Positions 10,560-27,105 of a stretch of DNA of 64,000 nucleotides are shown here, in pieces. Numbering within the stretch: the first letter of the stretch is position 1; each line of letters starts with the position of its first letter. Below the pieces are notes generated by a model, which was not told the origin of the DNA, did not search any database, and worked only from the letters and a program-made list of their open reading frames with translations. Both the position numbers and the translations under genes were made by a program. The DNA comes from Candidatus Dojkabacteria bacterium. GTDB lineage: Bacteria; Patescibacteriota; Dojkabacteria; B142; OLB20. The stretch is taken from positions 211,207 to 275,206 of the forward strand of contig DAOMOX010000002.1 in NCBI GenBank assembly GCA_035444565.1, written 5' to 3'.

Positions 10560-13500
10560 TTACTCTGTAGAAGCTTTCTTATATACCATACCTGTTCTCA
10601 ATGCCAAAATTGGTAATATAATTCTCCACAACCAGTATTTTGACATCTTAAATGATTCTATGAAGTCCACCGGTGTCTGTGTAGTATTTAATCCTCCAGA
10701 AGGTGTTAGTAATACCTTAGGTTTCAAAACAACTTGCTTGTCTTTTATGCTAGCTGCATTTTCTTGATACCAATTTTGGGCTGCTTCTTTAGTCATTCCT
10801 AATTTTTTCAATTTCTCTAGAGCCGATTCTACTGTATCAGAATCATCTAGCGTAAACTCCTTGATTAAATTATCATTTTCGTAATCTCCTGATAATTCCT
10901 TCATTCCAATTTCAATCTGTGGATGCTGGTTAAGCAAGGAGAAATTAGGACCATTACCTGACTTAAATAGTGACCCAGCCATAATAGCTGTCCACAAGGA
11001 GAGCATAAATCCTTCAAGTTTTAATTCTTTCGCTTGTTTCTCACCACCTGGTAAACCCCCTACTGACTCGATATAATCCTCCACAATCTTATCGTTTGTC
11101 GCAATGCCAAACAGAAATGCAGCAACATTATCGGCAAACATACTAACTCCTCCAGACAAAACAGTACTTAGATTAAGCTTAAGCATAAGCTTAGCCTTTG
11201 GCTCCAAATCACCCATGGCTTCGTCCACGCTACCAAATACTGATTTTGCAGACTCTATCATCGCACCAACATGCGATAATTGAGTTAACAATGCATAGAG
11301 CACTTCCTTCGCAGAATGTGATAGACCTTCTGCAATTTCTGATTCTTCGACATTAAATCCACCCATTTTAACAATTGCATCTCTTAAAGCCTGCCTATCT
11401 ACCACGTTGAGGTCATCATAAGAAAGACCCAACACTTTTGTAAGTTCAGGGTTAGCAACTCCTTCATCTAACATTTTTAATAGGGTGTCGACTAATTCAG
11501 GTTTAATGGTTGAATAGTCTATAGGTTCTTTTCCAGATCCATTTGAGAATTTTGCAATCAGCACTTCTTTGTAATCCTCAAAGAATTTATTTACCTTGCT
11601 CAATACCTTTAACATACCCTTTTCATTTCTATGTTCACCTAAACTGACTATAAATTCACTCATATATTTACTAATAGTTGTCATTTCTGCACCAGAAGGA
11701 ACATCTTCGTTTGTTCCGGTCATTACCGTAAAGGACATAATAGACTGTATGATATCAGTATTACCTGAAGCTAAATTAAATCCTTGTAAAAATTGAATGA
11801 ATTCCTCGTATGATATTTCTTGTCCTTCCACCAATCTGTCGAAAATGGTAAGCCCTGCTTCGTGATGTTCATCAGTTTCTAAAAATACAGCTTTATCCAC
11901 TAGTTCTCTTGGATCCTTCACAGCGCCCTTTACTGTCGAAAATACATTTACTACGCCATCTTGAAGTGTATGGCCAAGTGCCTTTAAACTATTAGTCACC
12001 ACATACCCGGGCATAACGAAAGATCGAGAATCTGTAATTTTAACTTTTGCAAAAAATTCTCTAACTAATGCATCTGACCTAGATTCGTCTGGGGACAATT
12101 CTAGTACTTCTCTTATAAATTGACCTAAATCAAATTCTAATTCGGGGTTCTCATCTCTATATAATTTAGCCTTCTCTATAAGATCATCATATGAACTTAT
12201 ACTTGAAGGGTCAGTTGATTCGAGGAAAGTAAGAAATTCATATTCAGTAACAACTCCTTTTAATTTAGTTATATCTACAGCAGTGGATTCTTTCAGGTTA
12301 TACGAAAGTTGCTCAATTTCCGCCCTTATCGATGCTTTCTCTTCTGACGGCATGACTTCTTTACTCAAGTGTTTTAATAAAGTATCAAGAGATATTACAG
12401 ATCCATCTCCTTTATAAAGTGAACGAAATGCATCATGATGTTCAATATCCGAGAACTTCACAACTCTGAAGTCTTCAATGTCCACGACTGTAGTTCCTCT
12501 CATAATCTCTTTTATTGTGGTCAATGGGTTTATCAGACCTTCCCCAACCTTACCAAGACCTATACCTATACCTTTTCCAAATTCAGATACAAATCTTGGA
12601 TTAGTAAGTGGATTTATTCCAAAAGATTCCTTCAGTGACCAACCAGAAGCGGTTAATCCTGATGCAAACGTAGCAATAATACCTTCCCCTTGACTTTTCT
12701 TAATATACTCAGGGAGGAAATCTCTTTCTAATGCTTCAGTTATTGCAAAAATGTTAGGAGGATCGCCTATCCCTATTAAGCCTGATGCATTTGCTGCATA
12801 GAACATTATTGCACCTCTTAAGCCACCTAGTTTGTTCATATTGATTGAAGTTTCAACCGCACTTGTGGCCTCTATAATCTCCATAGCGGTCTCTAAGTCT
12901 TTCGATACATTTAAACCATTTAGGTTTTCTAACATATTCTCAATCATTTTCTTTTTTGTTGCTATGTCTAGCAATTCATTTCCTAATTGGTTACCTAAGT
13001 CAGCCCCTAGATATGTTGTGAAAATGGGTGATAGTGCACCAATCATTCCCATTCCTCTAGAAGTAGTTGAAACTAACATGTCTTTGTAAAATCTATTCAA
13101 TCTTTCTAAATCTTCTCTCAATTCTTCTTGTTGATGAACTCTTTCTTCCTCATCTTCTACATTAAATTTTTGAATCTTTTCTGTTACAACTTTTCTTAAA
13201 TCTGCGGAAGAATAATCAATAGTCGAGCGATCATCATCTTCAGTACTAACAGACTCGAAGAAATTAAATTGCTTTTCACCTTCATCTACTAATTCTTGTT
13301 CTCTTTCTCTTCCCAGTAGGCTTTTGGTCCTTTCTATAAATCCTCTTTTTGGTTTGTCCGTTCCAATTCTTTCCTCATCTAAGTTTAATTGTTCGATGAT
13401 TTTATTTTCCATCAAAGCAGTTATGTTTGTTAAGACAGACAGTGCACCTGTTAAGATCAGATTAATAGGTGGAGTACCTCCCGTAAGTTCATGGATTATC

Positions 13501-14195
13501 TCATGTCCAAAATGCTTGTCAGCTTCATTACCATATTTTTGGAGAATAAAATCACAGGTATAAGCTAATCCTATGGATCTAGCTGCACTAAATTCGTTAA
13601 ATGTTTTCTCACCTTTACTTTTCGCGATTTGACCTACTGTGGTTGCAAAATGAACAAGCATCACACCCATTACTCCTTTACCAAGATAGGAAAGCTTTTC
13701 TTCTGAGTGTGAGTCTTCCTCTACAATTTCATCACCACTGTCATTTCTTCCTGCAGCCTCCAGTTCATCTTTAATATTCTGCAGCTTCTTTTCAAATTCC
13801 TCGTCTGTCAGATTATCTGCGGGATTGGCAGAATCTAAATTATTACCCCTATTACCTTTACCTTTGGCACTTTTTCCGTCAACCACTGAACCAGTAATTC
13901 CATTTGAATTGGCATCACCTGTATCTGGTTTGGGAATTATTCTTCTTAGAAACGGATTAGTTATAACAGGAGTAATAGCAGCCATGGCAAGAGTTTTTCC
14001 CAAGAAATCTCTTCTACCTTCATCAACAACTTTATTCTTTCCACCGCCGAATATCCTATCGCAAACATTCAAATATAATCCTACTAATGTTGGATCTGGT
14101 TCAGAGTATTCCGGCCTAGTTCCACCTTCAGGAAACATATCTCCCATCCTGCCTACAGGACCTTTCATATGTTGTTCTATTAATTCGTCAACCAT
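10560..14195 (-). CDS. giant (about 1200 aa) protein of unknown function with twin-arginine-like motif, HExxH motif and C-terminal hydrophobic segment
   Basis: RRDFLGK followed by the hydrophobic TLAMAAITPVI sits about 60 aa into the annotated ORF. An in-frame TTG 19 codons upstream of RR could be the true start. An internal HEIIH motif is present, and a C-terminal hydrophobic stretch (YWLWRIILPILAL) is followed by KK. Otherwise there are no recognisable domains. Confidence 0.6.
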   Translation of the reverse strand: MVDELIEQHMKGPVGRMGDMFPEGGTRPEYSEPDPTLVGLYLNVCDRIFGGGKNKVVDEGRRDFLGKTLAMAAITPVITNPFLRRIIPKPDTGDANSNGITGSVVDGKSAKGKGNRGNNLDSANPADNLTDEEFEKKLQNIKDELEAAGRNDSGDEIVEEDSHSEEKLSYLGKGVMGVMLVHFATTVGQIAKSKGEKTFNEFSAARSIGLAYTCDFILQKYGNEADKHFGHEIIHELTGGTPPINLILTGALSVLTNITALMENKIIEQLNLDEERIGTDKPKRGFIERTKSLLGREREQELVDEGEKQFNFFESVSTEDDDRSTIDYSSADLRKVVTEKIQKFNVEDEEERVHQQEELREDLERLNRFYKDMLVSTTSRGMGMIGALSPIFTTYLGADLGNQLGNELLDIATKKKMIENMLENLNGLNVSKDLETAMEIIEATSAVETSINMNKLGGLRGAIMFYAANASGLIGIGDPPNIFAITEALERDFLPEYIKKSQGEGIIATFASGLTASGWSLKESFGINPLTNPRFVSEFGKGIGIGLGKVGEGLINPLTTIKEIMRGTTVVDIEDFRVVKFSDIEHHDAFRSLYKGDGSVISLDTLLKHLSKEVMPSEEKASIRAEIEQLSYNLKESTAVDITKLKGVVTEYEFLTFLESTDPSSISSYDDLIEKAKLYRDENPELEFDLGQFIREVLELSPDESRSDALVREFFAKVKITDSRSFVMPGYVVTNSLKALGHTLQDGVVNVFSTVKGAVKDPRELVDKAVFLETDEHHEAGLTIFDRLVEGQEISYEEFIQFLQGFNLASGNTDIIQSIMSFTVMTGTNEDVPSGAEMTTISKYMSEFIVSLGEHRNEKGMLKVLSKVNKFFEDYKEVLIAKFSNGSGKEPIDYSTIKPELVDTLLKMLDEGVANPELTKVLGLSYDDLNVVDRQALRDAIVKMGGFNVEESEIAEGLSHSAKEVLYALLTQLSHVGAMIESAKSVFGSVDEAMGDLEPKAKLMLKLNLSTVLSGGVSMFADNVAAFLFGIATNDKIVEDYIESVGGLPGGEKQAKELKLEGFMLSLWTAIMAGSLFKSGNGPNFSLLNQHPQIEIGMKELSGDYENDNLIKEFTLDDSDTVESALEKLKKLGMTKEAAQNWYQENAASIKDKQVVLKPKVLLTPSGGLNTTQTPVDFIESFKMSKYWLWRIILPILALRTGMVYKKASTE

Positions 14196-14346
14196 TTTTC
14201 ACAATAAAAAAAGACTCGAAAGTCAAAAACAAAACTCAATTTTATTACTCATCTGTCAACTAGTCAATACCGAATTGGTAATTGTCTATTTTATATTTGA
14301 CACCAAAATAGCTGAGATATATAATCAAATCAGTTATATTACACAA

Positions 14347-15384
14347 ATGGAAATCAAGTATTCAGTAACAGAACAATTACTTAACATTATAAGTAAATTT
14401 CAAGAACTTCATGGTCGTGTTTATGGTGCCTACCATTTTCTAGATCATGAGACACAACGAAAAATCTTTCTCGAAGCCGAAGAAATCGCTGCTTTCTCTG
14501 CCGTCATAAATGATATTGGTGCTATGGAGGAGCTTAGTAAAGACTGGGATACTAGTCTTATTAATAAATTACTAAGTGCAGAAGATAAAATCTATTATCA
14601 CAATTACCTTTCAATTCTTAGAGAATTTCCTAAATTAATTCCCATTAAAGGAAATCTTATTACTTCCGAGATGTTAAAAACCATTCACAAAAATCTTCTA
14701 TCTCAAGAATCATCTTATTTTAGAACAGATACTAAGGAGATTTCATCAATAACAATCGAAGATGGAATTAAATACGAATACCAATCAACTGTGCGAACAC
14801 ATCCGAATGCAATCGTACCGAAATTGAATGAGTTCTCTAAGTGGCTGGAAAGCAATCAAGGTTTAAACCCTGTGATTTTGGCAGCGATAACGTACTTTAA
14901 AATTGCTGAAATCCATCCGTTCCATGAAGCAAATGGAAGATCCTCAAAAATATTATCTCGTGCTAAATTATACAAACATGGAATTGACACACACTTATTA
15001 CTAACTATTGATGATTATCTATTAACTAACCAACATTATTACTTCGATATCATTGAACAAACAATAAATAGCCAAGACTTAACAAAATGGATTGAGTTTT
15101 ACGCTAAAAGTTTATTACATGGAGTTACCCAAACTGCTAGATTAATCTACAACCATACAGCAGGGACTATCGATATTATGGAAAATAAGTTCACAATCCT
15201 AAAGCCCAGAGAAAAAGAAGTGATGCAAATCATAATGGATACACAAAATTCTAGCGGAGCAGAAATTGGAAGAGAGCTCAACATGACAAGACAAAACGTC
15301 AATGTCATAATTAAAGGTCTCCTGAAGAAAGGTTTAATAAAGAAAATAGGGAAGAACACAGGAGTAAGATATATCCCTTCCTAA
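14347..15384 (+). CDS. Fic-family protein (AMPylase-type) with C-terminal winged-HTH
   Basis: The Fic motif HPFHEANGRSSK matches HxFx(D/E)(A/G)N(G/K)R. The C-terminal helix-turn-helix reads TRQNVNVIIKGLLKKGLIKKIG. The true start is Met175 of the 519-aa track ORF, because the upstream part overlaps the 1211-aa gene on the other strand. Confidence 0.85.
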   Translation: MEIKYSVTEQLLNIISKFQELHGRVYGAYHFLDHETQRKIFLEAEEIAAFSAVINDIGAMEELSKDWDTSLINKLLSAEDKIYYHNYLSILREFPKLIPIKGNLITSEMLKTIHKNLLSQESSYFRTDTKEISSITIEDGIKYEYQSTVRTHPNAIVPKLNEFSKWLESNQGLNPVILAAITYFKIAEIHPFHEANGRSSKILSRAKLYKHGIDTHLLLTIDDYLLTNQHYYFDIIEQTINSQDLTKWIEFYAKSLLHGVTQTARLIYNHTAGTIDIMENKFTILKPREKEVMQIIMDTQNSSGAEIGRELNMTRQNVNVIIKGLLKKGLIKKIGKNTGVRYIPS

Positions 15385-17295: not shown

Positions 17296-17922
17296 TTAAT
17301 TTACTACAATATCCTCAATCACCACATCCTCAACTGGCTTATCATTTGCACCAGTTTCTGTTTTTCCAATAGCTTCAACAACCTCAATACCACTGATTAC
17401 TTTTCCAAATACTGGGTGTTTATCGTCTAGGAAATTATTATCAACTAGATTGATAAAAAACTGACTACCACCTGTGTTTGGACCAGAATTTGCCATCGAC
17501 AGAGTGCCTTTGTTATTTTTATTGTCATCAGTGAACTCGTCCGGAATTGTATATCCTGGTCCTCCCGAACCTATACCATCAGGATCACCACCCTGAATCA
17601 TAAAACCATCAATTACTCTGTGGAAAATTACACTATCATAGAAGTCTTCTTGGGCGAGTTTAAGAAAATTATTTGCCGTTATCGGCATTGTCTCATTAAA
17701 CAACTCTATAGTTATATCTCCTTTGTTTGTTTTCATAACTACTGTTTTATTTGGTTGTGGAGTCTCGTTAATCATTTCTGAATTTAAATTAGTTAAAGTA
17801 TTATCAGCTGCAGCCTCTTCAGTCACAGTTACTTCGTCTGTATTACGCACGCAGCCAGTGATAAATAGAATGCTAACAAGAATTGTGACAAGGAAGAAAG
17901 ATTTTTTCATAATTTTATGCAA
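17296..17922 (-). CDS. ppiB: cyclophilin-type peptidyl-prolyl cis-trans isomerase, lipoprotein
   Basis: Lipobox LFITGC, then cyclophilin motifs ([36 protein letters not shown]). Confidence 0.9.
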
Positions 17923-17984
17923 AATAACCTAAACAGATTAGCATAAAATTTATCCCGCCCTCAACCCCCTGTAAAAAACAGGGG

Positions 17985-18425
17985 GAAGTTGGGATTAACT
18001 GTTTCGTAAGCCGGATTCTGTATCCTCGCGCTATGCGCAATTGAGATAGTCATTTGTCTATGCCCCCTATTACGAGGTTGCTCCGAGCAGGGGTTACCAT
18101 GCACTTATTTGTTGCCAAATAAGCCGGTGGTCTCTTACACGCCCTTTGATGTACTAATTATCAAAAGACACTGGCTTGGCCAGCCACCTTTTCAAGTTCA
18201 CTTATAGATATTCGTCTTCATTACGATCTTTTTCAGGCGGGCTGACAACCCATTCCTTCTATAAGTACTTTGCTCTCTGTTGCCCTTTTATCCGTAAGTT
18301 CACACCTACCCAGCCACTTCGTCTTCACTTATGTGAGGATCTGTGAATGGTACCCATCCCGTTTTAAAACGAGACAGAAATGGAGTCCGGACTTTCCTCC
18401 CCTCTTTCTAATTCCCAAAGGACCA
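17985..18425 (-). ncRNA. rnpB: RNase P RNA, bacterial type A
   Basis: Reverse complement carries the universal blocks GGAGGAAAGTCCGGACTCC (P4 5' strand), GGGCAACAGAGAGCAAA, GTGTAAGAGACCACC, GGAGCAA…AATAGGGG, AAATGACTATC and ACAGAATCCGGCTTA (P4 3' strand) in the canonical order. An AT-rich insertion sits in the middle, and the ends are approximate (about 15 nt either way). The track ORFs 18270-18455(+), 18380-18562(+) and 18460-18681(-) fall in the GC-rich rnpB zone (the last also lies inside the 185-aa gene) and are treated as spurious. Confidence 0.8.
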
Positions 18426-18472
18426 AGAAGGAGGAGCGACCATCAAAAACAGTGATTAATTATATCACGGAA

Positions 18473-19030
18473 CTAATATGTGATACGATCTTCGAAGGTA
18501 TAGGATTTTTCTCTGTAAACAAGTGTGATTTCGATCTTATAAGAATCTTTTGGTATCGATAAATCAAAATTACTTGGATTTGAGGCACTTCTTGAAAGTT
18601 CGTATTTAGTAAAAGATTCTTTTCCTTGTATATCCCAGTAAATATCAAACGTGTCTCCACTAGTACCCCATGGTTTACCACTCACATAAGGGACAAATCC
18701 AAGATTTACGTTCACTAGTGCCATTGTTTGACTATTAACATTTGCACTAATTTCTCCATCGATTGTAACATCTGCCTGTGTATCTGAAGGAGTTGGGGCT
18801 ACAGATCCGTACATCGCAAAAAGTATAATGCTACCAAGGGTAATAAAACCAATAAGTGGATAAATATTTTTACCTAGGAAACCATAACGAGGATTTTCAA
18901 AATTATTAAGCCTACTTTTAAGATGGAATATGTATAAAACAAGTGTGACAATTACAGAGATAATTACCAGACCAATTAACAACCCTGTCAGAGAGTAACC
19001 TTGATCGTAAATTCCAAAAATATTATCCAT
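18473..19030 (-). CDS. bitopic membrane protein (2 N-terminal TM helices plus a beta-rich C-terminal domain), last gene of the VirB4-like cluster
   Basis: 185 aa with hydrophobic helices LTGLLIGLVIISVIVTLVLYIF and IYPLIGFITLGSIILFAMYG. Function unknown. Confidence 0.5.
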   Translation of the reverse strand: MDNIFGIYDQGYSLTGLLIGLVIISVIVTLVLYIFHLKSRLNNFENPRYGFLGKNIYPLIGFITLGSIILFAMYGSVAPTPSDTQADVTIDGEISANVNSQTMALVNVNLGFVPYVSGKPWGTSGDTFDIYWDIQGKESFTKYELSRSASNPSNFDLSIPKDSYKIEITLVYREKSYTFEDRITY

Positions 19031-19077
19031 AATATTTAATAATATAATATTTCTAGAAATAATAGTAATTAGTTAAT

Positions 19078-21354
19078 TTAACCTTGTGTAACATTTGGTC
19101 CAATATTCTGATTATTATTAGTTGTGTTAGCTTGAGGATAATTTACACCAAGTTGATTAATGTTTGAATATTGATTCGTTGGAGGCTGATTTGGCGTATT
19201 ATAGCCAATATTAGGTTGCATTTGTTGATTAACTCCGCCTGCATTCATTGGGGCAGGATTTTGCGGATACATTGGTTGTATATTCTGAGGAGTGGAGTTC
19301 GGGGTAGTCGTGATATTACCTCCAACATTCTGAGCATTTTGACTCATACCAGATTGACCTTGGTTTAGATAACTAGCTCCTGGGGTATTAGTTGCAGGTG
19401 TATTTTGAACAACATTAGTAATATTAGGATCTTTGGCAGTTTGAGGATTAGCCATCTCTTCGGAAATTGGAATTTGTAATTTCTCCAACCTTTGTTTCTC
19501 AGCCTTTTGAAGATTTGCATCTTCCATAGCTCTCATCTCTCTCGGATTAGTTGTTATAAGATTATGTTCATTTTCACTCGCAATAACTTGAATACCTACA
19601 TGATTATTTCCCGCAAAGAAGATACCTTCGCCGATTCCAGCAGTGAGTAGATATTGCTTTTCTCCCATTGATAGGTAGAAGACTTTTTGAAGTTTATCTG
19701 CTGCCGCTGTACTTTGTTTCAATAACACTTGAATTGATGAGTTGGTTACCACAGCTCTTCCATAATCCGTTCCAAGGAAGTCCTCTACGTCTTGGGTAAT
19801 TGTAGTCAAACCAAGTGCGTATTTTCTAGCTCTTTTTGCGATAGAGTGTAAGAACCTAGCACCCTCTTCGAATTGCATCATCCACCAAGCTTCGTCAATG
19901 ATTAATAAGCGCTCTCTTCTGTCTTTTTTAACTCTAGTCCAGATGTAATCCAACATCAGGTACATAGCAATTGGCCTCAGATCTTCAGCTAAATCTCTAA
20001 TACTAAAGACTGTGAATGAGTTTTTGATTTCGATGTTTGTTTTTTGGTCAAAAATACCTGCCGAACTACCTTTGATATATTTTTCAATCTTTTGTGCTAG
20101 CACATGTGCTTCATTTTCAGCCATTGCCATCAAAACTTTGTACAAGTCCTCTAGCAGTGGAGGTTCTCTTCTTTGGGTTGCAGGGTCAGGGGTTATGCCT
20201 TTTTCTTTATAAGTTAGTATTAATGCCCTATCAAGTATGGAACTCTCCATAGAAGTCAATGTTCCACCAACCATAAGCCTGATTAAACCATTTAATAGCA
20301 GAATTTTAAATCTCAATTCGTCTTCGTCTTTATCATAAATACCCGAAAGTTCGAATGGATTAAGTTTCTGACCTCCATCTTGAGAGAATGAGATATAATC
20401 ACCACCAGCAGTTAAACAAAGTTTTTCATATTCCTTCTCAGGGTCAATGATGATTATCTGTGTTCCCATCATTAAACTTCTGATGGCTTCAAGTTTGACC
20501 ATATAACTTTTTCCAGCTCCAGATGTAGCGAAAACTACCATGTTTGCATTTGGCATTTGGAACCTATCGAATATAATCAGACTTTTATTATGTTTATTAA
20601 TTCCGTAGAGGATTCCATCATCCATGGTAAGCTCGGATGAGACAAATGGAAAGGTAGTTGCAAGAGAAGTGGTATCCATATTTCTTGTAAGGTATATTTT
20701 GTCCATTCCCAGTGGCATACTAGTCACAAAGCCTTGCTCTTGTTGAAGTGATGCGATTTTAGTAATTACACCAAGAGCTGATAATGTTGATTCAACGTTT
20801 CTTGAGATTTTCTCTAATTCTTGTAGATTCGTTGATCTTATAGTTATATAGAGTGCAAAATGGAAAAACTTTTCATTACCACTAGCAATTGCTTGTTGTA
20901 ACTCTTCTGCATCTTTGAGGGTGATTTTGATATTTGGATCAGGGATTTTACCAGCTTCAACGTCGATATTTAAAGATGCTTGTAACTCAGCAATTTTTCT
21001 TTTCAATCTAGATAAAATCAGTGCTGAATCAACAGGATAATAAAAAGAGCTGATAGTAAGGGGTCTTTCAAAATTGATAAGTGGTGACAACCAGTTTGCA
21101 CTTACCCATCTTGGGAATCCCGTTGCAAAAAAAGTACGGAAGTACTTGCCCCCGATAAGCATATGATTGAAGTCGATTTCAATCGCCGGTGGAGCAATAA
21201 TGTCTTTGACATCCACTACTGCCTTTGAAAAATCGTCAACTGCAGCCTGTTCAAGTTGATTTTGATCAGGAGCTCCCACCATTTGAACTTGTGGAGAGTT
21301 GCTTTTCTGACCTTTTTTTAATTTATCAAATATTTTAAGTTTTGGTATTTTCAT
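19078..21354 (-). CDS. VirB4/TrbE/TraC-family type-IV-secretion ATPase with Asn/Gln/Pro-rich C-terminal tail
   Basis: N-terminal CagE/TrbE/VirB4 region (GGKYFRTFFATGFPRWVSANWLSPL), Walker A VVFATSGAGKSY and Walker B LLIIDEAWWM (the DEAW signature). The last 123 aa are low-complexity N/Q/P/T-rich. Confidence 0.8.
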   Translation of the reverse strand: MKIPKLKIFDKLKKGQKSNSPQVQMVGAPDQNQLEQAAVDDFSKAVVDVKDIIAPPAIEIDFNHMLIGGKYFRTFFATGFPRWVSANWLSPLINFERPLTISSFYYPVDSALILSRLKRKIAELQASLNIDVEAGKIPDPNIKITLKDAEELQQAIASGNEKFFHFALYITIRSTNLQELEKISRNVESTLSALGVITKIASLQQEQGFVTSMPLGMDKIYLTRNMDTTSLATTFPFVSSELTMDDGILYGINKHNKSLIIFDRFQMPNANMVVFATSGAGKSYMVKLEAIRSLMMGTQIIIIDPEKEYEKLCLTAGGDYISFSQDGGQKLNPFELSGIYDKDEDELRFKILLLNGLIRLMVGGTLTSMESSILDRALILTYKEKGITPDPATQRREPPLLEDLYKVLMAMAENEAHVLAQKIEKYIKGSSAGIFDQKTNIEIKNSFTVFSIRDLAEDLRPIAMYLMLDYIWTRVKKDRRERLLIIDEAWWMMQFEEGARFLHSIAKRARKYALGLTTITQDVEDFLGTDYGRAVVTNSSIQVLLKQSTAAADKLQKVFYLSMGEKQYLLTAGIGEGIFFAGNNHVGIQVIASENEHNLITTNPREMRAMEDANLQKAEKQRLEKLQIPISEEMANPQTAKDPNITNVVQNTPATNTPGASYLNQGQSGMSQNAQNVGGNITTTPNSTPQNIQPMYPQNPAPMNAGGVNQQMQPNIGYNTPNQPPTNQYSNINQLGVNYPQANTTNNNQNIGPNVTQG

Positions 21355-22018
21355 CCGCTTTAAATGAAGTATATTTAGTTGTAGCCAACTCCAAATTCTT
21401 CGCTCCGATTTTGTCAGGATCGTACATAGAATAATAAAGTCTTACTAGTTGTTCGTTATTTAACTGCCAAGTCTCAATTCCCATTTTCTTAAATTGTTTA
21501 AATACATGATCACGCTTAGGATACAAATTAATTTTAGCTTTATCGAAAATTGCTTTACGATTCGTAATTTGAATTCTTTTTCCAAATATTTGCTTAACTA
21601 TTCCCGTCCTTTGAACCTCTGCAGAAATCTCCGGAATTACTATGAAAAATCTTTTATCCAAGACTTCTCTATTGTATGTTAGATTTTTTATGAATTGTAA
21701 GTAGATTTCAATTTGTCGAATTAATGCCTTTGATGCTTGTTGTTGTTTAAAAGATACTAATTTTTCAACATATGCTGTTAAATCAGAGCGTTCTGTTAAA
21801 ATTACTACCTGCATTTGGAAATTAAGAGAATTTAACATTCCTGCGAACATCTTTATTTTTGCATCTTGTTCCTCCTCGGATAAAAGATCAAAGTTTACAG
21901 CACCAGTTTCAATAACCAATGATACTCTTCCATCTTTTAATAAAACCAAGTCATCTCTAATGTCTTCGATTTCAAGATGATCTTGAGTACTTATTTTTGA
22001 ATTTGAAACTATTCCCAT
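21335..22018 (-). CDS. hypothetical protein resembling the detached extreme N-terminal segment of VirB4
   Basis: 227-aa soluble ORF carrying LLKDGRVSLVIETGAVNFDLLSEEEQDAKIKMFAGMLNSL, the pattern of the VirB4 N-terminus. It overlaps the VirB4-like gene start by 20 nt. Confidence 0.4.
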   Translation of the reverse strand: MGIVSNSKISTQDHLEIEDIRDDLVLLKDGRVSLVIETGAVNFDLLSEEEQDAKIKMFAGMLNSLNFQMQVVILTERSDLTAYVEKLVSFKQQQASKALIRQIEIYLQFIKNLTYNREVLDKRFFIVIPEISAEVQRTGIVKQIFGKRIQITNRKAIFDKAKINLYPKRDHVFKQFKKMGIETWQLNNEQLVRLYYSMYDPDKIGAKNLELATTKYTSFKADENTKT

Positions 22019-22815
22019 TATTTAGCTTTAAACTTATAAAGAATGTCTTGGTTATCTTTTACATTTATTCTGTAATACTCAAAGACTAATTTAGGTGCCG
22101 CAATGCTTACAAAATAAACACCTGGACTAAGAGCCGTATCTAAATTAAACTGTCCTTTATCATCTGTAGTTACTTCGTTGATAAATTCACCGCTCTCAGA
22201 GTTTACACTAACTAACGCACCTTGTACTGGATTATCTTTATTATCTACTACAAATCCTTTAATCATTATTGTTTTAGATGAGCTGCCTTGTTCAGAAGTA
22301 ATTGTAGATGTATTTAGAGAAGTATCTGATGATTGTGTCCCGAACATTTCTTGTTCAATTTGTTTTAATCTTAGCTCCTCCTCTCTATCAGCAACAGTAA
22401 ACTCTTTCTGTACTTCAAATTTAGTCAGCGGAGCTACGGATGCTCGAATACGGCCTTCTTTTTTAACTTTCTCTAATGTTTCTTCTTTTGTTCTTTTCAC
22501 TTCTTCATGAAAAACATCTGGAACAACCCCAGTTTTTTTCCAAACTCGCTCTTGGGAAGTAAACATTGCAACAATGAAATTAGTCAACCACACAGAAGAA
22601 TATTGACCATTAATTTTTATCAGAGAAAGAAAAATCCCTAATATTACTGCGATTATAATTAATACAACTCTCAGAATCCCAGGTAAAGGTGTGAAATATA
22701 TTCCCAATGCTATCATCAGTAAGGTCGCAAGATAGGCAAATTGTTTTACAGAGAGAGCACCAAAGAGTTTGAACTCTACTTCCATTATGTTTTGTGGGAC
22801 TGCGTGTCTCTCCAT
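22018..22815 (-). CDS. 2-TM membrane protein (VirB3-like topology) fused to a carboxypeptidase-regulatory-like beta-sandwich domain
   Basis: N-terminal hairpin of two TM helices (LATLLMIALGIYFTPLPGILRVVLIIIAVILGIFL). The C-terminus (GFVVDNKDNPVQGALVSVNSESGEFINEVTTDDKGQFNLD) resembles a CarboxypepD_reg domain. It overlaps the next gene by 1 nt. Confidence 0.45.
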   Translation of the reverse strand: MERHAVPQNIMEVEFKLFGALSVKQFAYLATLLMIALGIYFTPLPGILRVVLIIIAVILGIFLSLIKINGQYSSVWLTNFIVAMFTSQERVWKKTGVVPDVFHEEVKRTKEETLEKVKKEGRIRASVAPLTKFEVQKEFTVADREEELRLKQIEQEMFGTQSSDTSLNTSTITSEQGSSSKTIMIKGFVVDNKDNPVQGALVSVNSESGEFINEVTTDDKGQFNLDTALSPGVYFVSIAAPKLVFEYYRINVKDNQDILYKFKAK

Positions 22816-23283
22816 TTATTTGATACTTTTTATAACAAAATCAACCGAGCCACCTGGTGTTGGAACGGTTACTTTATCACCTTTCTTTTTGCCTGAGAGT
22901 GATTTCCCCAGAGGTGAATCCATGGAAATTTTTCTTTCCGTAGGATCAGCTTCGTTATGTCCGACGATGATGTATTCCACATCTGCTCCTCCATCAGACT
23001 TTTGAATAGTAACTCTCCTTCCCAAATCAACAACTCCAGAATTTGATTTAGTTGAAATTTCTGCATTTGATAATAATTCTTTTAGTTGATTTATTCGATT
23101 TTCGTTAAATTCCTTTGATTCAATAGCCGATTTATAGGCAGCATTTTCCGATAAATCACCTTGTTGTCTAGCTTTCTCGATTTCGTCTGCAATTTTAGTT
23201 CGAACTATTGTCTCCCTTTCTTCTATTTCAGAAACAATTTTATCGTAACCTTCTTGTGTAAAAATTTGTTTTGGATTATTCAT
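22816..23283 (-). CDS. greA: transcription elongation factor GreA
   Basis: 155 aa with a GDLSENAAYKSA motif and a C-terminal FKBP-like domain. It is embedded between the 1036-aa gene and the VirB3-like gene with 0-1 nt spacers. Confidence 0.9.
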   Translation of the reverse strand: MNNPKQIFTQEGYDKIVSEIEERETIVRTKIADEIEKARQQGDLSENAAYKSAIESKEFNENRINQLKELLSNAEISTKSNSGVVDLGRRVTIQKSDGGADVEYIIVGHNEADPTERKISMDSPLGKSLSGKKKGDKVTVPTPGGSVDFVIKSIK

Positions 23284-23284
23284 A

Positions 23285-26200
23285 TTATTTTTTTAATTCA
23301 AACTTAAAAATCTTATCTCCTGTCAGAACACCAGAATATATGTATTTATTATTATCTTTAATAAAATCAGTGCCTTCCGGAGTTACATCGAATTCTGGGT
23401 CAAATGCAATCTCTAAATCATAGTTGCTCTCTATTCCAGGATTCTTGTTTAATCTTAACATAAAAATCGTTTGTTTTGTTTCCGGATTTGCGAATTGACT
23501 AGATGTAAAGCTCATTCCATAAGATAAATCATCATCTTCTAAATAGATATTACAAGTCTTATCTGTTGAATAAGTTGTTGATACTAACTCTGGGGCTACA
23601 TCAATATTTTCAATATTTTGAGCACCACCATTTACACACAAATATCCATTTTGTAAATTATCAACATTATTCAACCTCAAATTGAGCGTAGACTTTGCAA
23701 TATAGTCAGCATCGATATTGATAGCACCAGATATTGTCGAAATCGGGTACTTAATCAGATCGCTTTTTGCATCTGGATTGTGATTCATTCCAAAGAATAT
23801 TTCTGCATTAGGCGAATAGCCAACACCTGTAATTGACCTGAGAAATGATTCAAACTCTGGGTTATTTGAATAGTAGAGCATATCTTTCGTATTATGTGAA
23901 TATACCAATGTATTCACTATGTCGTTTATATTGTTATTAAGATTATTAAACGCATCAGCTATATTTTTTGCATATAAATTCATAATAATCTCATTCCTGG
24001 CAATTAAGTCATTTGAATTGTTTAAAAGACTAATGTTATTCAGCAAATTATCATCATTAAAATTAAGTTGTCGGAAATTAATATCACCTTGGTTTTGCAT
24101 AGCATTACTCAAAGTACCGACATTTGTGGAGATAACTAAGTCAATATTAGATTTCGTGTTTAGTTCGAAATTTCTTTCAATTACTCTTAAGAAAAGATTC
24201 GGTTCGGAAATATTGTATAAATCCTGAAAGACGATATTCTCTGCGCTAACTTCCTTACTGGAAACTAAATTTATAGAAGAAACCACATCACTTGAAACCA
24301 CATCCTTGTTTAATACAGGCGTTTTGAGGATTTCTGTATTCAATGTCTTTAATGTACCTTGGTCTATGGTGAAATTGATATAACCAACAATAGCACCGCC
24401 AGAGCTACTATACCTCGTATTGTCTTGAACAACTACCAAGTAATTTATTGGCTTTTCTCGCCCCATCAGTAATGGAAGATTATTATACTGATTTGCAATG
24501 AATTGCGAGGCTTTAAATTTCTCATCTAAATCAAGCATTTTTTCTGATGTATTTTGTATTAATTCTGCAGGAAGTCTTTGAGAGTATACGTATGCTTCTT
24601 CTTTTGATGAGGAAATCCGCCCTAAACTATCTTCAATGATTCCTCTTTGAGCATACATAGTATCCAACTCTTCTTTGAAGTTTTCACTGTCATTAGTGCT
24701 TAGCAATCTGTCCTCACCAAATCTGTATACAATACTCGGATTCGAATTATTAATAAATGTTTGCATAGGAATATATGCGTTCAATAAATCGGTATACCCT
24801 TCTGAGTAATCAATTGAACTCGCAAGATATTTCTGAGTAGAACTATATAAATCTTCTTTATTTAACAAAGAAAACAAATACTGTAAATCTTCAACTCTTG
24901 CCTGCGCTGACTCTAAGTTATCTTTAAGTTTAAGGTTATTGTCACTTGCTTCTACGAAGTTTAAGCTAGATACGTTTTCGATTACCCGATCATAATAAAC
25001 CCTCGTGAAAAATATATTTCTACTTAAACTAAACAGCGGAGAAATCAGCATGAAATAAATTACAGCAAATCCCGTGATTAGAAACAATGTTACAACGAAA
25101 TCGGTAACTGTGACGTTTTTTAGGAAAAATATTCTTCTACTAAATCCAAATAAAATATCATGAAGTGAAGTGTCAATTTTTTGTAGTATTGATTGTTTTT
25201 CCTTAGGTTTCTTGGATGATTTGTTGTTTACGTTCGCCTGTATCATGTTTCCTGTTCTGGCCATATCAAGCTTCTTCCTTTCTGCAATTAATTTAGAAAT
25301 CGCGTCACCATCACCACCTTCATTCTCAGCAACGAAAAAGAAATCACGAATTTTTTCAGACATGTTCTTAGTATTTGATACTTTCAATGAAGCATCCTCT
25401 TTAAGTGCTTTCTCAATTATTAATAGTTCTTGAATATACTCAATGGTTTGAATTAATGATCTATCAAACTCAATACGAGGTCTCCAGCCAATAGTTACTA
25501 AACTCTCTGCAGGTTTATACAATATTAATGAAGGATATTGGTCGTCTTCACTATCAAATCGTATCTCTCTTGCTGTAGGCAATAATTCTAAGAGTTTATA
25601 TGCAATTGAAAGTATTGTGACTTCTTCTGGATTAGCTAATGTGAATATTTTTCCTTTTGTACTCGCGGAGAATTGCGCTTTCAACACTCCATAAGCTGCA
25701 TCAAGATAATGAATGTAGTAATTAGCTTCTAATCCATCACCAGGTACTTTCAAGTCTTTTCCTTCAAGCCCATACCTAATAAGTTTAATGAGACTAGAAT
25801 TTTGATCAAATTCTGTACCTCGGCCAATTATTTCACCTAGTCTTAATATTCTGGCATTTATCCCCACTCTCTGAATGTACTCTTGAACCAAACTTTCAGA
25901 GTATCTTTGTATCTCAAGCTCCATATATTGTGAATGGTTCGAAGTACTATTCAGCCCGTAATTGTAATCGAGATGAGCATTTGAAATATTTAATTGATGT
26001 GCTTTTATTGAAGTTGTTAGAAGGAATTTGGAGTCAAATTTTGAACATAAATCCAAGATTGAATCTAAATAGTTAGAATTTTGCAGGTACTTTTGAGTAG
26101 AGATTTTTTCTTTAAGGTGTGTTGATTTATGTTCGAAATAAAACACATAATCAAGCCTGCGTAAATCAAGACCTAAGGTATTAATCGCAGAGAAATTTAG

Positions 26201-26395
26201 AACTGTAAGATTTTTGTACTTAACTAGTGGATCAAGAAGCTTACGAGATGCGTTGCTTTCACTGTCAATGATAATCACGTAACCACCCTGTTCCAGCAAG
26301 GATCGTGCGATCTCGACACCAAGTACATTCGCACCTTTAACGATAATAGAGGTAGGAAACCTCACTGAACCATGTAATTTTTTAACTACATTCAT
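23285..26395 (-). CDS. giant membrane protein: cytoplasmic SDR/epimerase-like N-domain, single TM helix and large extracytoplasmic C-domain
   Basis: The N-terminus is Rossmann-like (IIVKGANVLGVEIARSLLEQGGYVIIID) with a YxxxK motif (AAYGVLK). A TM helix sits near residue 440 (VTDFVVTLFLITGFAVIYFMLISPLF). An approximately 580-aa N/S/L-rich C-terminal region has no recognised motif. Confidence 0.55.
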   Translation of the reverse strand: MNVVKKLHGSVRFPTSIIVKGANVLGVEIARSLLEQGGYVIIIDSESNASRKLLDPLVKYKNLTVLNFSAINTLGLDLRRLDYVFYFEHKSTHLKEKISTQKYLQNSNYLDSILDLCSKFDSKFLLTTSIKAHQLNISNAHLDYNYGLNSTSNHSQYMELEIQRYSESLVQEYIQRVGINARILRLGEIIGRGTEFDQNSSLIKLIRYGLEGKDLKVPGDGLEANYYIHYLDAAYGVLKAQFSASTKGKIFTLANPEEVTILSIAYKLLELLPTAREIRFDSEDDQYPSLILYKPAESLVTIGWRPRIEFDRSLIQTIEYIQELLIIEKALKEDASLKVSNTKNMSEKIRDFFFVAENEGGDGDAISKLIAERKKLDMARTGNMIQANVNNKSSKKPKEKQSILQKIDTSLHDILFGFSRRIFFLKNVTVTDFVVTLFLITGFAVIYFMLISPLFSLSRNIFFTRVYYDRVIENVSSLNFVEASDNNLKLKDNLESAQARVEDLQYLFSLLNKEDLYSSTQKYLASSIDYSEGYTDLLNAYIPMQTFINNSNPSIVYRFGEDRLLSTNDSENFKEELDTMYAQRGIIEDSLGRISSSKEEAYVYSQRLPAELIQNTSEKMLDLDEKFKASQFIANQYNNLPLLMGREKPINYLVVVQDNTRYSSSGGAIVGYINFTIDQGTLKTLNTEILKTPVLNKDVVSSDVVSSINLVSSKEVSAENIVFQDLYNISEPNLFLRVIERNFELNTKSNIDLVISTNVGTLSNAMQNQGDINFRQLNFNDDNLLNNISLLNNSNDLIARNEIIMNLYAKNIADAFNNLNNNINDIVNTLVYSHNTKDMLYYSNNPEFESFLRSITGVGYSPNAEIFFGMNHNPDAKSDLIKYPISTISGAINIDADYIAKSTLNLRLNNVDNLQNGYLCVNGGAQNIENIDVAPELVSTTYSTDKTCNIYLEDDDLSYGMSFTSSQFANPETKQTIFMLRLNKNPGIESNYDLEIAFDPEFDVTPEGTDFIKDNNKYIYSGVLTGDKIFKFELKK

Positions 26396-27105
26396 TGTTG
26401 GGCAGTTAATTCAACTGGTTTTGCAAATAAATTAACCTCTAAACTCAATTCGACATCTTTTAGTTTGTCTCTTTCAGACTGTTCTGTAGGTAATATTTCA
26501 ATCTCGAGTGTATCAAAACCTTTTTTACTAAATGTTAAGATATGTGTACTGTCAATGCCTATGGGAATTGACCTTAAAGGTGTTTTACCTATATCTCTTC
26601 CGTCTAGTTTAACATCTACATCATCCACTGTCGAAAGTATATCTAGGGTTGGTTCAACACCTTTTGTGAAGCTCTTTTTAGCTGTTAATATGTGACCTTC
26701 TGAAAATAATAATGATGGACCTAAATCATATCCGATAACAACGTCAACGTCATTTTCAAAATTTATATTTCTTTCGAACTCAGAATAAAACCCATCATTA
26801 CCAGGTCTCACAATCTTAATATTATGCTCTCCTGCTTCAATTGGATAAACCTCAAGAAATGACTCTTGATCAGACGTTACACCTGCAGAATTACCATCAA
26901 CGAACACTTCCAATTCTCCCGAGAAAGCCTTAACTTTCAAGCCACTATAACTATCTCTTGAATCAATACCAAATATATTAATCCACTCGAAGTTCCATGA
27001 CTGCCATGGTGACCAAAAAGCTAATAAAATTAGAGATAATATTAACAGTGAAATTCTAGTAACTTTGCGCATTTTCAATAAAAAACTAATAGGAAATCCT
27101 ATCAA
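26392..27105 (-). CDS. signal-anchored protein with two PEGA-like domains
   Basis: N-terminal hydrophobic anchor (ISLLILSLILLAFW). Two segments match the PEGA pattern (…VDG…G.TP……G.H.I…KKGF…). It overlaps the downstream 1036-aa gene by 4 nt. Confidence 0.5.
   Translation of the reverse strand: MIGFPISFLLKMRKVTRISLLILSLILLAFWSPWQSWNFEWINIFGIDSRDSYSGLKVKAFSGELEVFVDGNSAGVTSDQESFLEVYPIEAGEHNIKIVRPGNDGFYSEFERNINFENDVDVVIGYDLGPSLLFSEGHILTAKKSFTKGVEPTLDILSTVDDVDVKLDGRDIGKTPLRSIPIGIDSTHILTFSKKGFDTLEIEILPTEQSERDKLKDVELSLEVNLFAKPVELTAQQ

Follow-up and report, generated by a model that had tools for sequence, protein, structure and literature searches.

The type IV secretion systems (T4SSs) closest to the one analysed here are those of Patescibacteria, the candidate phyla radiation (CPR), and those of Firmicutes plasmids of the pSK41/pGO1 type. 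Our subject is a pair of adjacent open reading frames (ORFs) of 227 and 758 amino acids (aa) that correspond to parts of one VirB4 ATPase and lie in a 64-kb stretch of Candidatus Dojkabacteria DNA (hereafter the window, in which all coordinates are positions). Quiñonero-Coronel et al. (2025, Microb Genom, PMC12102498), using the CONJScan MPF_FATA profile of TrsD, found TrsD to be the most abundant T4SS component of Patescibacteria; they counted 2,272 homologues, of which 1,664 neighbour virB4, and already noted a remote homology of TrsD to the VirB4 N-terminus. Their paper also places PrgI/VirB3 next to VirB4 among housekeeping and ribosomal genes, reports that the Patescibacteria T4SS is essential for the episymbiotic lifestyle, and lists TrsD as essential in Ca. 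S. epibionticum while assigning no function to it. It is not known to say that the VirB4 beside TrsD is missing precisely the segment that TrsD matches, or to mention fused TrsD-VirB4 proteins; Guglielmini et al. (2014, PMC4027160), cited elsewhere as the source of the TrsD-VirB4 homology, does not name TrsD in its main text.

Here we show that the 227-aa and 758-aa products are complementary, collinear homologues of one VirB4 and that fused forms occur in nature. The arrangement has been described before, as TrsD plus VirB4, in pSK41/pGO1-type systems and in Patescibacteria and is not a new system; what is added, the explicit complementarity of both products, evidence for a common split point and a sizeable set of CPR proteins in which VirB4 is fused, is modest, an incremental clarification of a published observation and not a discovery.

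In the Staphylococcus plasmid pSK41, the order trsC (135 aa), trsD (227 aa), trsE (672 aa) matches that of the window, where a VirB3-like gene is followed by a gene of ~227 aa and a short virB4. An hhalign comparison of a 54-sequence profile of the small protein with pSK41 TrsD returned a probability of 89% (E 2.3e-6, 177 columns, residues 8-203 against 30-218 of 227), a homology that spans almost the whole of both proteins, and residue 48 of pSK41 TrsE aligns with residue 63 of the 758-aa protein. Since TrsE and the 758-aa protein start at the same block, the split point is common to CPR chromosomes and pSK41/pGO1-type plasmids. The similarity is nevertheless remote, as the 227-aa protein matches the TrsD/TraD family NF041427 (residues 6-130 on profile positions 10-144 of 201, E 1.8e-6) with 27.9 bits against a cutoff of 200 bits. 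The two settings also differ in other respects: trsD and trsE are separated by a 14-nucleotide (nt) gap, whereas the window pair overlaps by 20 nt; the pSK41/pGO1 genes form a conjugative system on a plasmid and have a relaxase and a coupling protein nearby, whereas the window locus is chromosomal beside greA, RNase P RNA and genes taken to be ribosomal; and the window has in addition a CarboxypepD_reg domain on its PrgI-like protein and an N/Q-rich VirB4 tail. Other plasmids offer further comparisons. TraD and TraE of pIP501 are grouped with TrsD and TrsE by the NCBIfam family name alone (NF041427), the split pair of C. botulinum pCBG consists of a 257-aa ‘TraC family protein’ (WP_040109983; PF26593-type) and a 620-aa ATPase, in this order after a PrgI family protein, and the split pair of a Pontibacillus plasmid follows a small unannotated (hypothetical) gene. 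Judged by its homology to pSK41 TrsD and by the description of TrsD in PMC12102498, the window locus appears to be an instance of the Patescibacteria TrsD plus VirB4 arrangement.

Complementary products of two overlapping genes

The 227-aa ORF (22018..21335) and the 758-aa ORF (21354..19078) both lie on the minus strand, start with ATG and share 20 nt (21335..21354, minus strand, ATGAAAATACCAAAACTTAA), the end of the TrsD-like ORF being the start of the VirB4 ORF. The ORF list thus confirms the overlap described in an earlier note on this DNA, and the peptide strings quoted there are present in the sequence. Relative to the 227-aa ORF, the 758-aa ORF is in frame +1; upstream of its ATG only 90 nt are open in its frame, with an in-frame TAA at 21444. 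A 265-aa ORF (22018..22815, minus strand) lies directly upstream of the 227-aa ORF, and the stop of the former overlaps the start of the latter by 1 nt in the string TAATG. The gene order is therefore PrgI/VirB3-like, TrsD-like, VirB4, with overlaps of 1 nt and 20 nt, and the gene for a VirB3-type small membrane protein (PrgI match, 22018-22815) stands two genes upstream of the VirB4 gene.

The longer ORF (758 aa plus stop, 19078..21354, minus strand) encodes a VirB4-type ATPase without the first N-terminal subdomain, as seen in NCBIfam, PDB and Pfam matches. Its residues 36-589 fall on positions 174-735 of the 752 positions of conju_CD1110 (NF045971, E 4e-118) with 395.7 bits, above the cutoff of 325, and it also matches positions 292-893 of 894 of VirB4_plasma and positions 240-723 of 792 of TIGR00929, a diderm-centred model for which its score is below the cutoff (129.6 versus 643 bits). 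Because the matches to these three full-length VirB4 profiles start as late as 174/752, 292/894 and 240/792, the 758-aa protein alone lacks the first 170-290 profile positions and does not align end to end with full-length VirB4. It does not hold a complete N-terminal domain and an ATPase domain in a single polypeptide; the 227-aa product supplies the missing part. Residues 266-600 match the VirB4 C-terminal domain of PDB 4ag5 (E 6e-46), and Pfam matches comprise P-loop_TraG, AAA_10 and DUF87. Walker A (P-loop, ATSGAGKSY, residues 276-284, 20503..20529), inside the P-loop_TraG and AAA_10 matches, and Walker B (LLIIDEAW, residues 483-490, 19885..19908), both on the minus strand, were read from the sequence.

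Ahead of the ATPase domain the 758-aa protein has a leader (residues 1-52, 21199..21354, minus strand) and then, at residues 53-260 (20575..21198, minus strand), the second half of the VirB4 N-terminal domain, which starts IAPPAIEIDF...GGKYFRTFFATGFPRWV. The first residues of the leader form a short hydrophobic/basic motif, MKIPKLKIFDKLKK, seen again at the N-termini of VirB4 bodies in relatives (variants include MGLIPFIGKKK and MDLPLNLPLPFLNKK), and a variable linker follows; the leader measures 34-175 aa in 78 of 79 related loci, the one outlier having 7 aa. The earlier note had the 758-aa ORF begin with the conserved block IIAPPAIEIDF...GGKYFRTFFATGFP; this block is indeed in the ORF, but it comes after a 51-residue leader and is not its opening. 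The second-half region aligns from residue 213 of a fused CPR protein (P0244, see below), from residue 231 of a fused B. cereus VirB4 and from residue 48 of pSK41 TrsE, and matches the ends of PF03135 and PF11130 below threshold. At the other end, profile matches stop at about residue 600, and a low-complexity C-terminal tail rich in N, Q, P and T (residues 611-758, 19081..19524, minus strand; N 28, Q 21, P 17 and T 14 of 148 residues) lies outside every VirB4 profile.

The small protein (227 aa plus stop, 21335..22018, minus strand), identified as TrsD-like by profile matches, hhalign and fold, matches positions 100-280 of 894 of VirB4_plasma (NF045975, E 1.4e-9) and, weakly, positions 20-67 of the A. 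tumefaciens VirB4 profile. A match to PF26593.2 (TraC-like) is precomputed for an identical protein on record (P0001) and for most homologues. In an exhaustive HMMER search of 1.84 billion representatives the 227-aa protein gave 1,646 matches, with the domain at residues ~5-220 throughout the best 150 of the 1,646; a separate search gave 650 homologues at E ≤ 1e-3. The small protein has 34 invariant columns. As an identical protein is on record and 650 homologues exist, the 227-aa/758-aa pair is not a chance ORF pattern. No transmembrane (TM) segment was predicted by hydropathy, and phmmer against PDB sequences returned no match to the 227-aa protein even at E ≤ 10, so that its link to VirB4 structures comes from fold comparison only. 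In the Pfam scan, all matches of the small protein were at chance level (PIN-TPR-GreABC, E 0.07; DUF7113, E 0.16).

When the two products are concatenated, residues 7-827 align with positions 100-893 of 894 of VirB4_plasma as a single collinear stretch (HMMER, E 2e-84, better than either part), residues 22-795 align with positions 20-723 of 792 of TIGR00929, again as a single stretch, and the score against NF045971 is 406.2 bits. This collinearity, together with the fused forms and the conservation described below, bears out the proposal of the earlier note that VirB4 is naturally split here, with its N-terminal part encoded by a separate gene. The two outcomes that the note named as refuting this, a 227-aa protein unlike VirB4 N-termini in profile comparison and a 758-aa protein that spans full-length VirB4 by itself, did not occur.

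The closest structural comparison is R388 TrwK (PDB 7O41/7O43/8RTD), which, like TIGR00929 VirB4_CagE proteins in general, is one polypeptide where the window has two. The window system belongs to a monoderm MPF_FATA-like lineage, whereas R388 is of the diderm MPF_T class. The window proteins share with full-length VirB4 the collinear coverage, a small-protein fold best matching TrwK, and Walker A and B, whereas their sequences resemble TrwK very little (E 0.008 for the ATPase and, for the small protein, no match). An AlphaFold2 model of the 227-aa protein (m467f300de445, built with 54 homologues) has a mean predicted local distance difference test (pLDDT) score of 72.7, with an ordered alpha/beta core predicted at residues 15-198 (21425..21976, minus strand) and residues 1-14 and 199-227 predicted to be disordered (pLDDT < 50). 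In a Foldseek search of the PDB with this model, the 14 best matches, with E from 2e-3 to 4e-2, were without exception TrwK/VirB4 chains, after which E rose to 0.31; the predicted fold of the small protein is thus similar to VirB4. The model of the fused P0244 (m3350b5e9bfb6, pLDDT 85.3, pTM 0.74) superposes on full-length TrwK with TM-scores of 0.76/0.75 over ~836 columns. The N-terminal domain of R388 TrwK comprises residues 15-400, is wrapped by VirB3 and forms the VirB4 dimer interface (Mace et al., PMC9259494); from its extent, the small protein corresponds to about the first half of that domain. The 227-aa product is a soluble protein, a separately made version of the alpha/beta subdomain with which the N-terminal domain of canonical VirB4 begins. 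The earlier note was right to call it N-terminal, but ‘extreme N-terminal segment’ undersells a whole folded subdomain of ~185 residues.

A separate observation concerns the two halves of this N-terminal domain. In the P0244 model, residues 16-198 and 218-371 run through their secondary-structure elements in much the same order (three strands, helix, strand, two helices, strand, helix, strand, helix), which hints at an ancient internal duplication in the VirB4 N-terminal domain, with the split falling between the predicted repeats. The idea that the small protein is a paralogue of the second half was dropped after hhalign of the two profiles gave a probability of 0.1%.

Conservation of the split and its fused counterparts

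We examined 80 loci from species-level genomes of Dojkabacteria and other Patescibacteria, of which 79 were usable, one being cut by a contig end. The comparison of orthologous loci suggested by the earlier note gave a uniform picture: in 79/79 loci the VirB4 body comes directly after the small gene, and in none of the 79 are the two fused. The same split is present in independent assemblies at 99% (L007) and 94% (L003) identity, and the identical 227-aa protein P0001 is found in 4 contigs. The tail of the small protein is variable across loci. Outside the CPR, tblastn located the small-protein domain in 65 Firmicutes plasmids.

Fused versions occur as well. The CPR protein P0244 (787 aa) runs straight from the small-protein domain into the Walker-A ATPase; its residues 2-224 correspond to the 227-aa protein (35% identity) and its residues 213-767 to residues 53-607 of the 758-aa protein (57% identity). 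Contigs of two independent samples encode it; a PrgI gene immediately precedes its gene, and dnaN/dnaA lie close by. Its best 120 relatives, from Amesbacteria/Microgenomates, divide into 43 fused proteins, 68 ATPase-only proteins of 573-667 aa and 9 with an intein (the fused group lies among proteins P0271-P0386, with a locus at L001:6001-8364). Likewise, a fused VirB4 of 830 aa is encoded by B. cereus pJ62_2, in which the small protein corresponds to residues 28-198 and the 758-aa protein to residues 231-821.

In rough neighbour-joining trees of the ATPase body, which carry no support values and in which some ‘ATPase-only’ entries may be partial genes, fused CPR proteins fall inside clades of split ones, and Fitch parsimony on such a tree places a split state at the root of the sampled CPR with ~7 state switches. 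Within these limits, the fused or split state appears to be labile, as expected if the piece does the same job attached or free. The split itself is genuine and ancient, common to the 79 relatives and to pSK41/pGO1-type Firmicutes plasmids, and not a local event.

Several features of the relatives were noted in passing. In CPR lineages other than that of the window, TrsD-like proteins have tails of 100-500 aa that are disordered and rich in Q, N, P and S, and a low-complexity region similar to the one on the window VirB4 sits on the TrsD-like protein, not on VirB4. The long-tailed proteins have an extreme C-terminal motif, [LM]PP[IL][AP]EI[KTE], in 33/150 representatives, and a second tail motif, HPFVVEEL.DDYG, occurs in ~18 representatives (related proteins P0168-P0267; loci L087:725-2842 and L088:5001-6818); both look like docking peptides. 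Tails ending in LPPIAEI were considered as a different split point, which was ruled out because the downstream VirB4 keeps its own leader and an IAPEAIEVDF block. The window 227-aa protein has no long tail and neither terminal motif. The nine intein-bearing VirB4 homologues (1158-1215 aa; P0308, P0309, P0312, P0318, P0319, P0360, P0362, P0371 and P0387) have an intein with a homing endonuclease (PF14890 Intein_splicing and PF14528 LAGLIDADG_3) in the ATPase.

Readings of the split

The VirB4 motor is encoded here as two polypeptides, which we consider likely to reassemble: a TrsD-like first subdomain and a body with the second half of the N-terminal domain, the RecA-like ATPase domain and the low-complexity tail. 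With overlaps of 1 nt and 20 nt, the PrgI/VirB3-like, TrsD-like and VirB4 genes are probably co-transcribed and translationally coupled, and their products would thus be co-expressed. The exact complementarity of TrsD and VirB4 and the natural fused versions lead to the structural hypothesis that TrsD completes the VirB3-binding N-terminal domain of VirB4. The TrsD-like protein would dock non-covalently on the second N-terminal subdomain of the VirB4 body, giving a canonical VirB4 protomer, and the free subdomain would supply the membrane-proximal surface wrapped by VirB3, as the attached one does in R388 TrwK, as well as part of the contacts between VirB4 protomers. We infer the association of the two products, its 1:1 stoichiometry, the contact with PrgI and the function. 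For annotation, the 227-aa ‘hypothetical protein’ becomes a TrsD-like VirB4 N-terminal subdomain protein, and flags such as truncated, frameshifted or pseudogene would be wrong for the 758-aa gene.

Some observations weigh against this reassembly. The small protein evolves faster than the ATPase, with identities of 35-65% versus 57-81% in the same loci, so that some functional divergence is possible; the 227-aa protein stays far below the curated cutoff of NF041427, which places it as a homologue yet outside the narrow Firmicutes-plasmid subfamily; and Gracilibacteria TrsD homologues are reported, in PMC12102498, not to lie next to virB4. The first and last of these fit an explanation to which we give a small but real chance, that the 227-aa protein derives from the VirB4 N-terminus and is now an independent accessory factor (an assembly chaperone, regulator or adaptor) with partners of its own. 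TrsD being without an assigned function in that paper is in keeping with such a role, as are the disordered tails of 100-500 aa in other CPR homologues, ending in [LM]PP[IL][AP]EI or HPFVVEEL.DDYG, although the window protein lacks both a long tail and a terminal motif. Against an accessory role stands the interleaving of fused and split forms among close relatives (the ~7 changes counted by Fitch parsimony on the rough neighbour-joining tree), since states that interchange freely imply a piece that does the same job attached or not; moreover, in the fused model the domain packs in a full VirB4 fold matching TrwK.

Somewhat less probable still is that the split is not neutral, the free subdomain setting the number of protomers that engage PrgI/VirB3 (for example, only those of a ‘central’ ring) or recruiting another partner. 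A non-neutral split would fit the docking-like C-terminal motifs on TrsD homologues of CPR lineages other than this one, as well as the way in which Microgenomates have gone back and forth between the fused and the split state. If it were true, TrsD would be a regulatory or adaptor subunit of monoderm/CPR T4SSs essential for episymbiosis and not a mere detached piece of VirB4.

The earlier note had also raised a programmed frameshift, by which +1 (or -2) shifting within the 20-nt overlap would yield one VirB4 of ~980 aa and the split would be only apparent. The ORFs do overlap with the downstream frame at +1, the +1-frame overlap (20 or 29 nt) is kept in the five closest relatives, and the shifted product would resemble the natural fused VirB4 proteins. 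That geometry is kept, however, only in these closest relatives. Across the 79 loci, VirB4 is read in frame +1 of the small gene in 37, in frame +2 in 30 and in frame 0 in 12, and the genes overlap in 39 and abut or leave a gap in 40, ranging from a 140-nt overlap to a 651-nt gap; with frames and spacing so variable, no recoding geometry is conserved. In pSK41, trsD and trsE do not overlap at all, being 14 nt apart. The VirB4 ORF further has its own ATG and the conserved N-terminal hydrophobic/basic motif, which is found also in lineages without overlap. A prfB-like shift site consists of CUU UGA preceded by a Shine-Dalgarno sequence; inspection of 21335-21354 for a slippery sequence found no prfB-like site, the overlap reading ACU UAA A. 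We therefore regard frameshifting as very improbable. TrsD-like protein and VirB4 body come from two genes, each with its own start, and the boundary between them falls at a disordered linker. The 20-nt overlap resembles the usual overlap of neighbouring genes, would allow translational coupling and does not look like a conserved recoding site.

A sequencing artefact or a decaying gene, in which an indel or a recent pseudogenising frameshift broke a single virB4, can practically be dismissed: the +1 frame difference between adjacent halves is what a single-base indel would give, but the split recurs in independent assemblies and in all 79 related genomes, both products are well conserved (including the 34 invariant columns of the small protein), and the junction has gene-like ends, with a variable tail on one side and a conserved leader on the other.

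Genomic setting and neighbouring genes

The window has a G+C content of 35% and carries greA and an RNase P RNA in addition to the T4SS genes; tightly packed ORFs at ~27.5-47 kb, unscanned, are taken from their layout to be a ribosomal protein cluster. The identical 227-aa protein P0001 is recorded on a 620-kb contig of Candidatus Dojkabacteria, and this record, together with greA, the RNase P RNA and the putative ribosomal cluster, identifies the window as a chromosomal region of CPR/Patescibacteria. The locus is thus a chromosomal T4SS core of Candidatus Dojkabacteria. A scan of 17900-23600 for promoters and terminators found no more sites than in shuffled sequence, and none between the TrsD-like and VirB4 genes.

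The 265-aa product of the gene at 22018..22815 (minus strand) is a PrgI/VirB3-like membrane protein by Pfam and hydropathy: residues 6-91 match PF12666 PrgI (E 3.3e-8), and two TM segments are predicted at residues 21-39 and 41-72. After this TM hairpin, residues 185-256 form a CarboxypepD_reg beta-sandwich (PF13620, E 3.3e-10), a domain that is also found on genes upstream of TrsD homologues elsewhere (L088:3748-4947, 399 aa; L089:511-1740, 409 aa). An extracytoplasmic addition of this kind to VirB3 seems unusual.

On the downstream side, a 185-aa ORF (18473-19030, minus strand) lies 47 nt beyond the VirB4 gene. It has predicted TM segments at residues 10-41 and 55-78 and weak pilin-like matches (N_methyl, E 0.015; ComGE, E 0.034), and on this basis could be a T4SS or pilin-like membrane component. 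The T4SS genes are directly adjoined downstream by a full-length bacterial RNase P RNA of class A (17992-18455, minus strand; Rfam RF00010, 110.3 bits), because of which the short ORFs listed at 17992-18455 are spurious. Farther along, a 1211-aa ORF (10560-14195, minus strand) matches no Pfam family at E ≤ 0.01 and has one strongly hydrophobic segment only; its 5' end is overlapped by a 519-aa ORF on the plus strand (13825-15384). Upstream of greA, tightly packed and in the same orientation as the T4SS genes, are the genes for a 1036-aa protein with an N-terminal NAD-dependent epimerase domain and DUF4012 (23285-26395, minus strand) and for a 237-aa PEGA-domain protein (26392-27105, minus strand).

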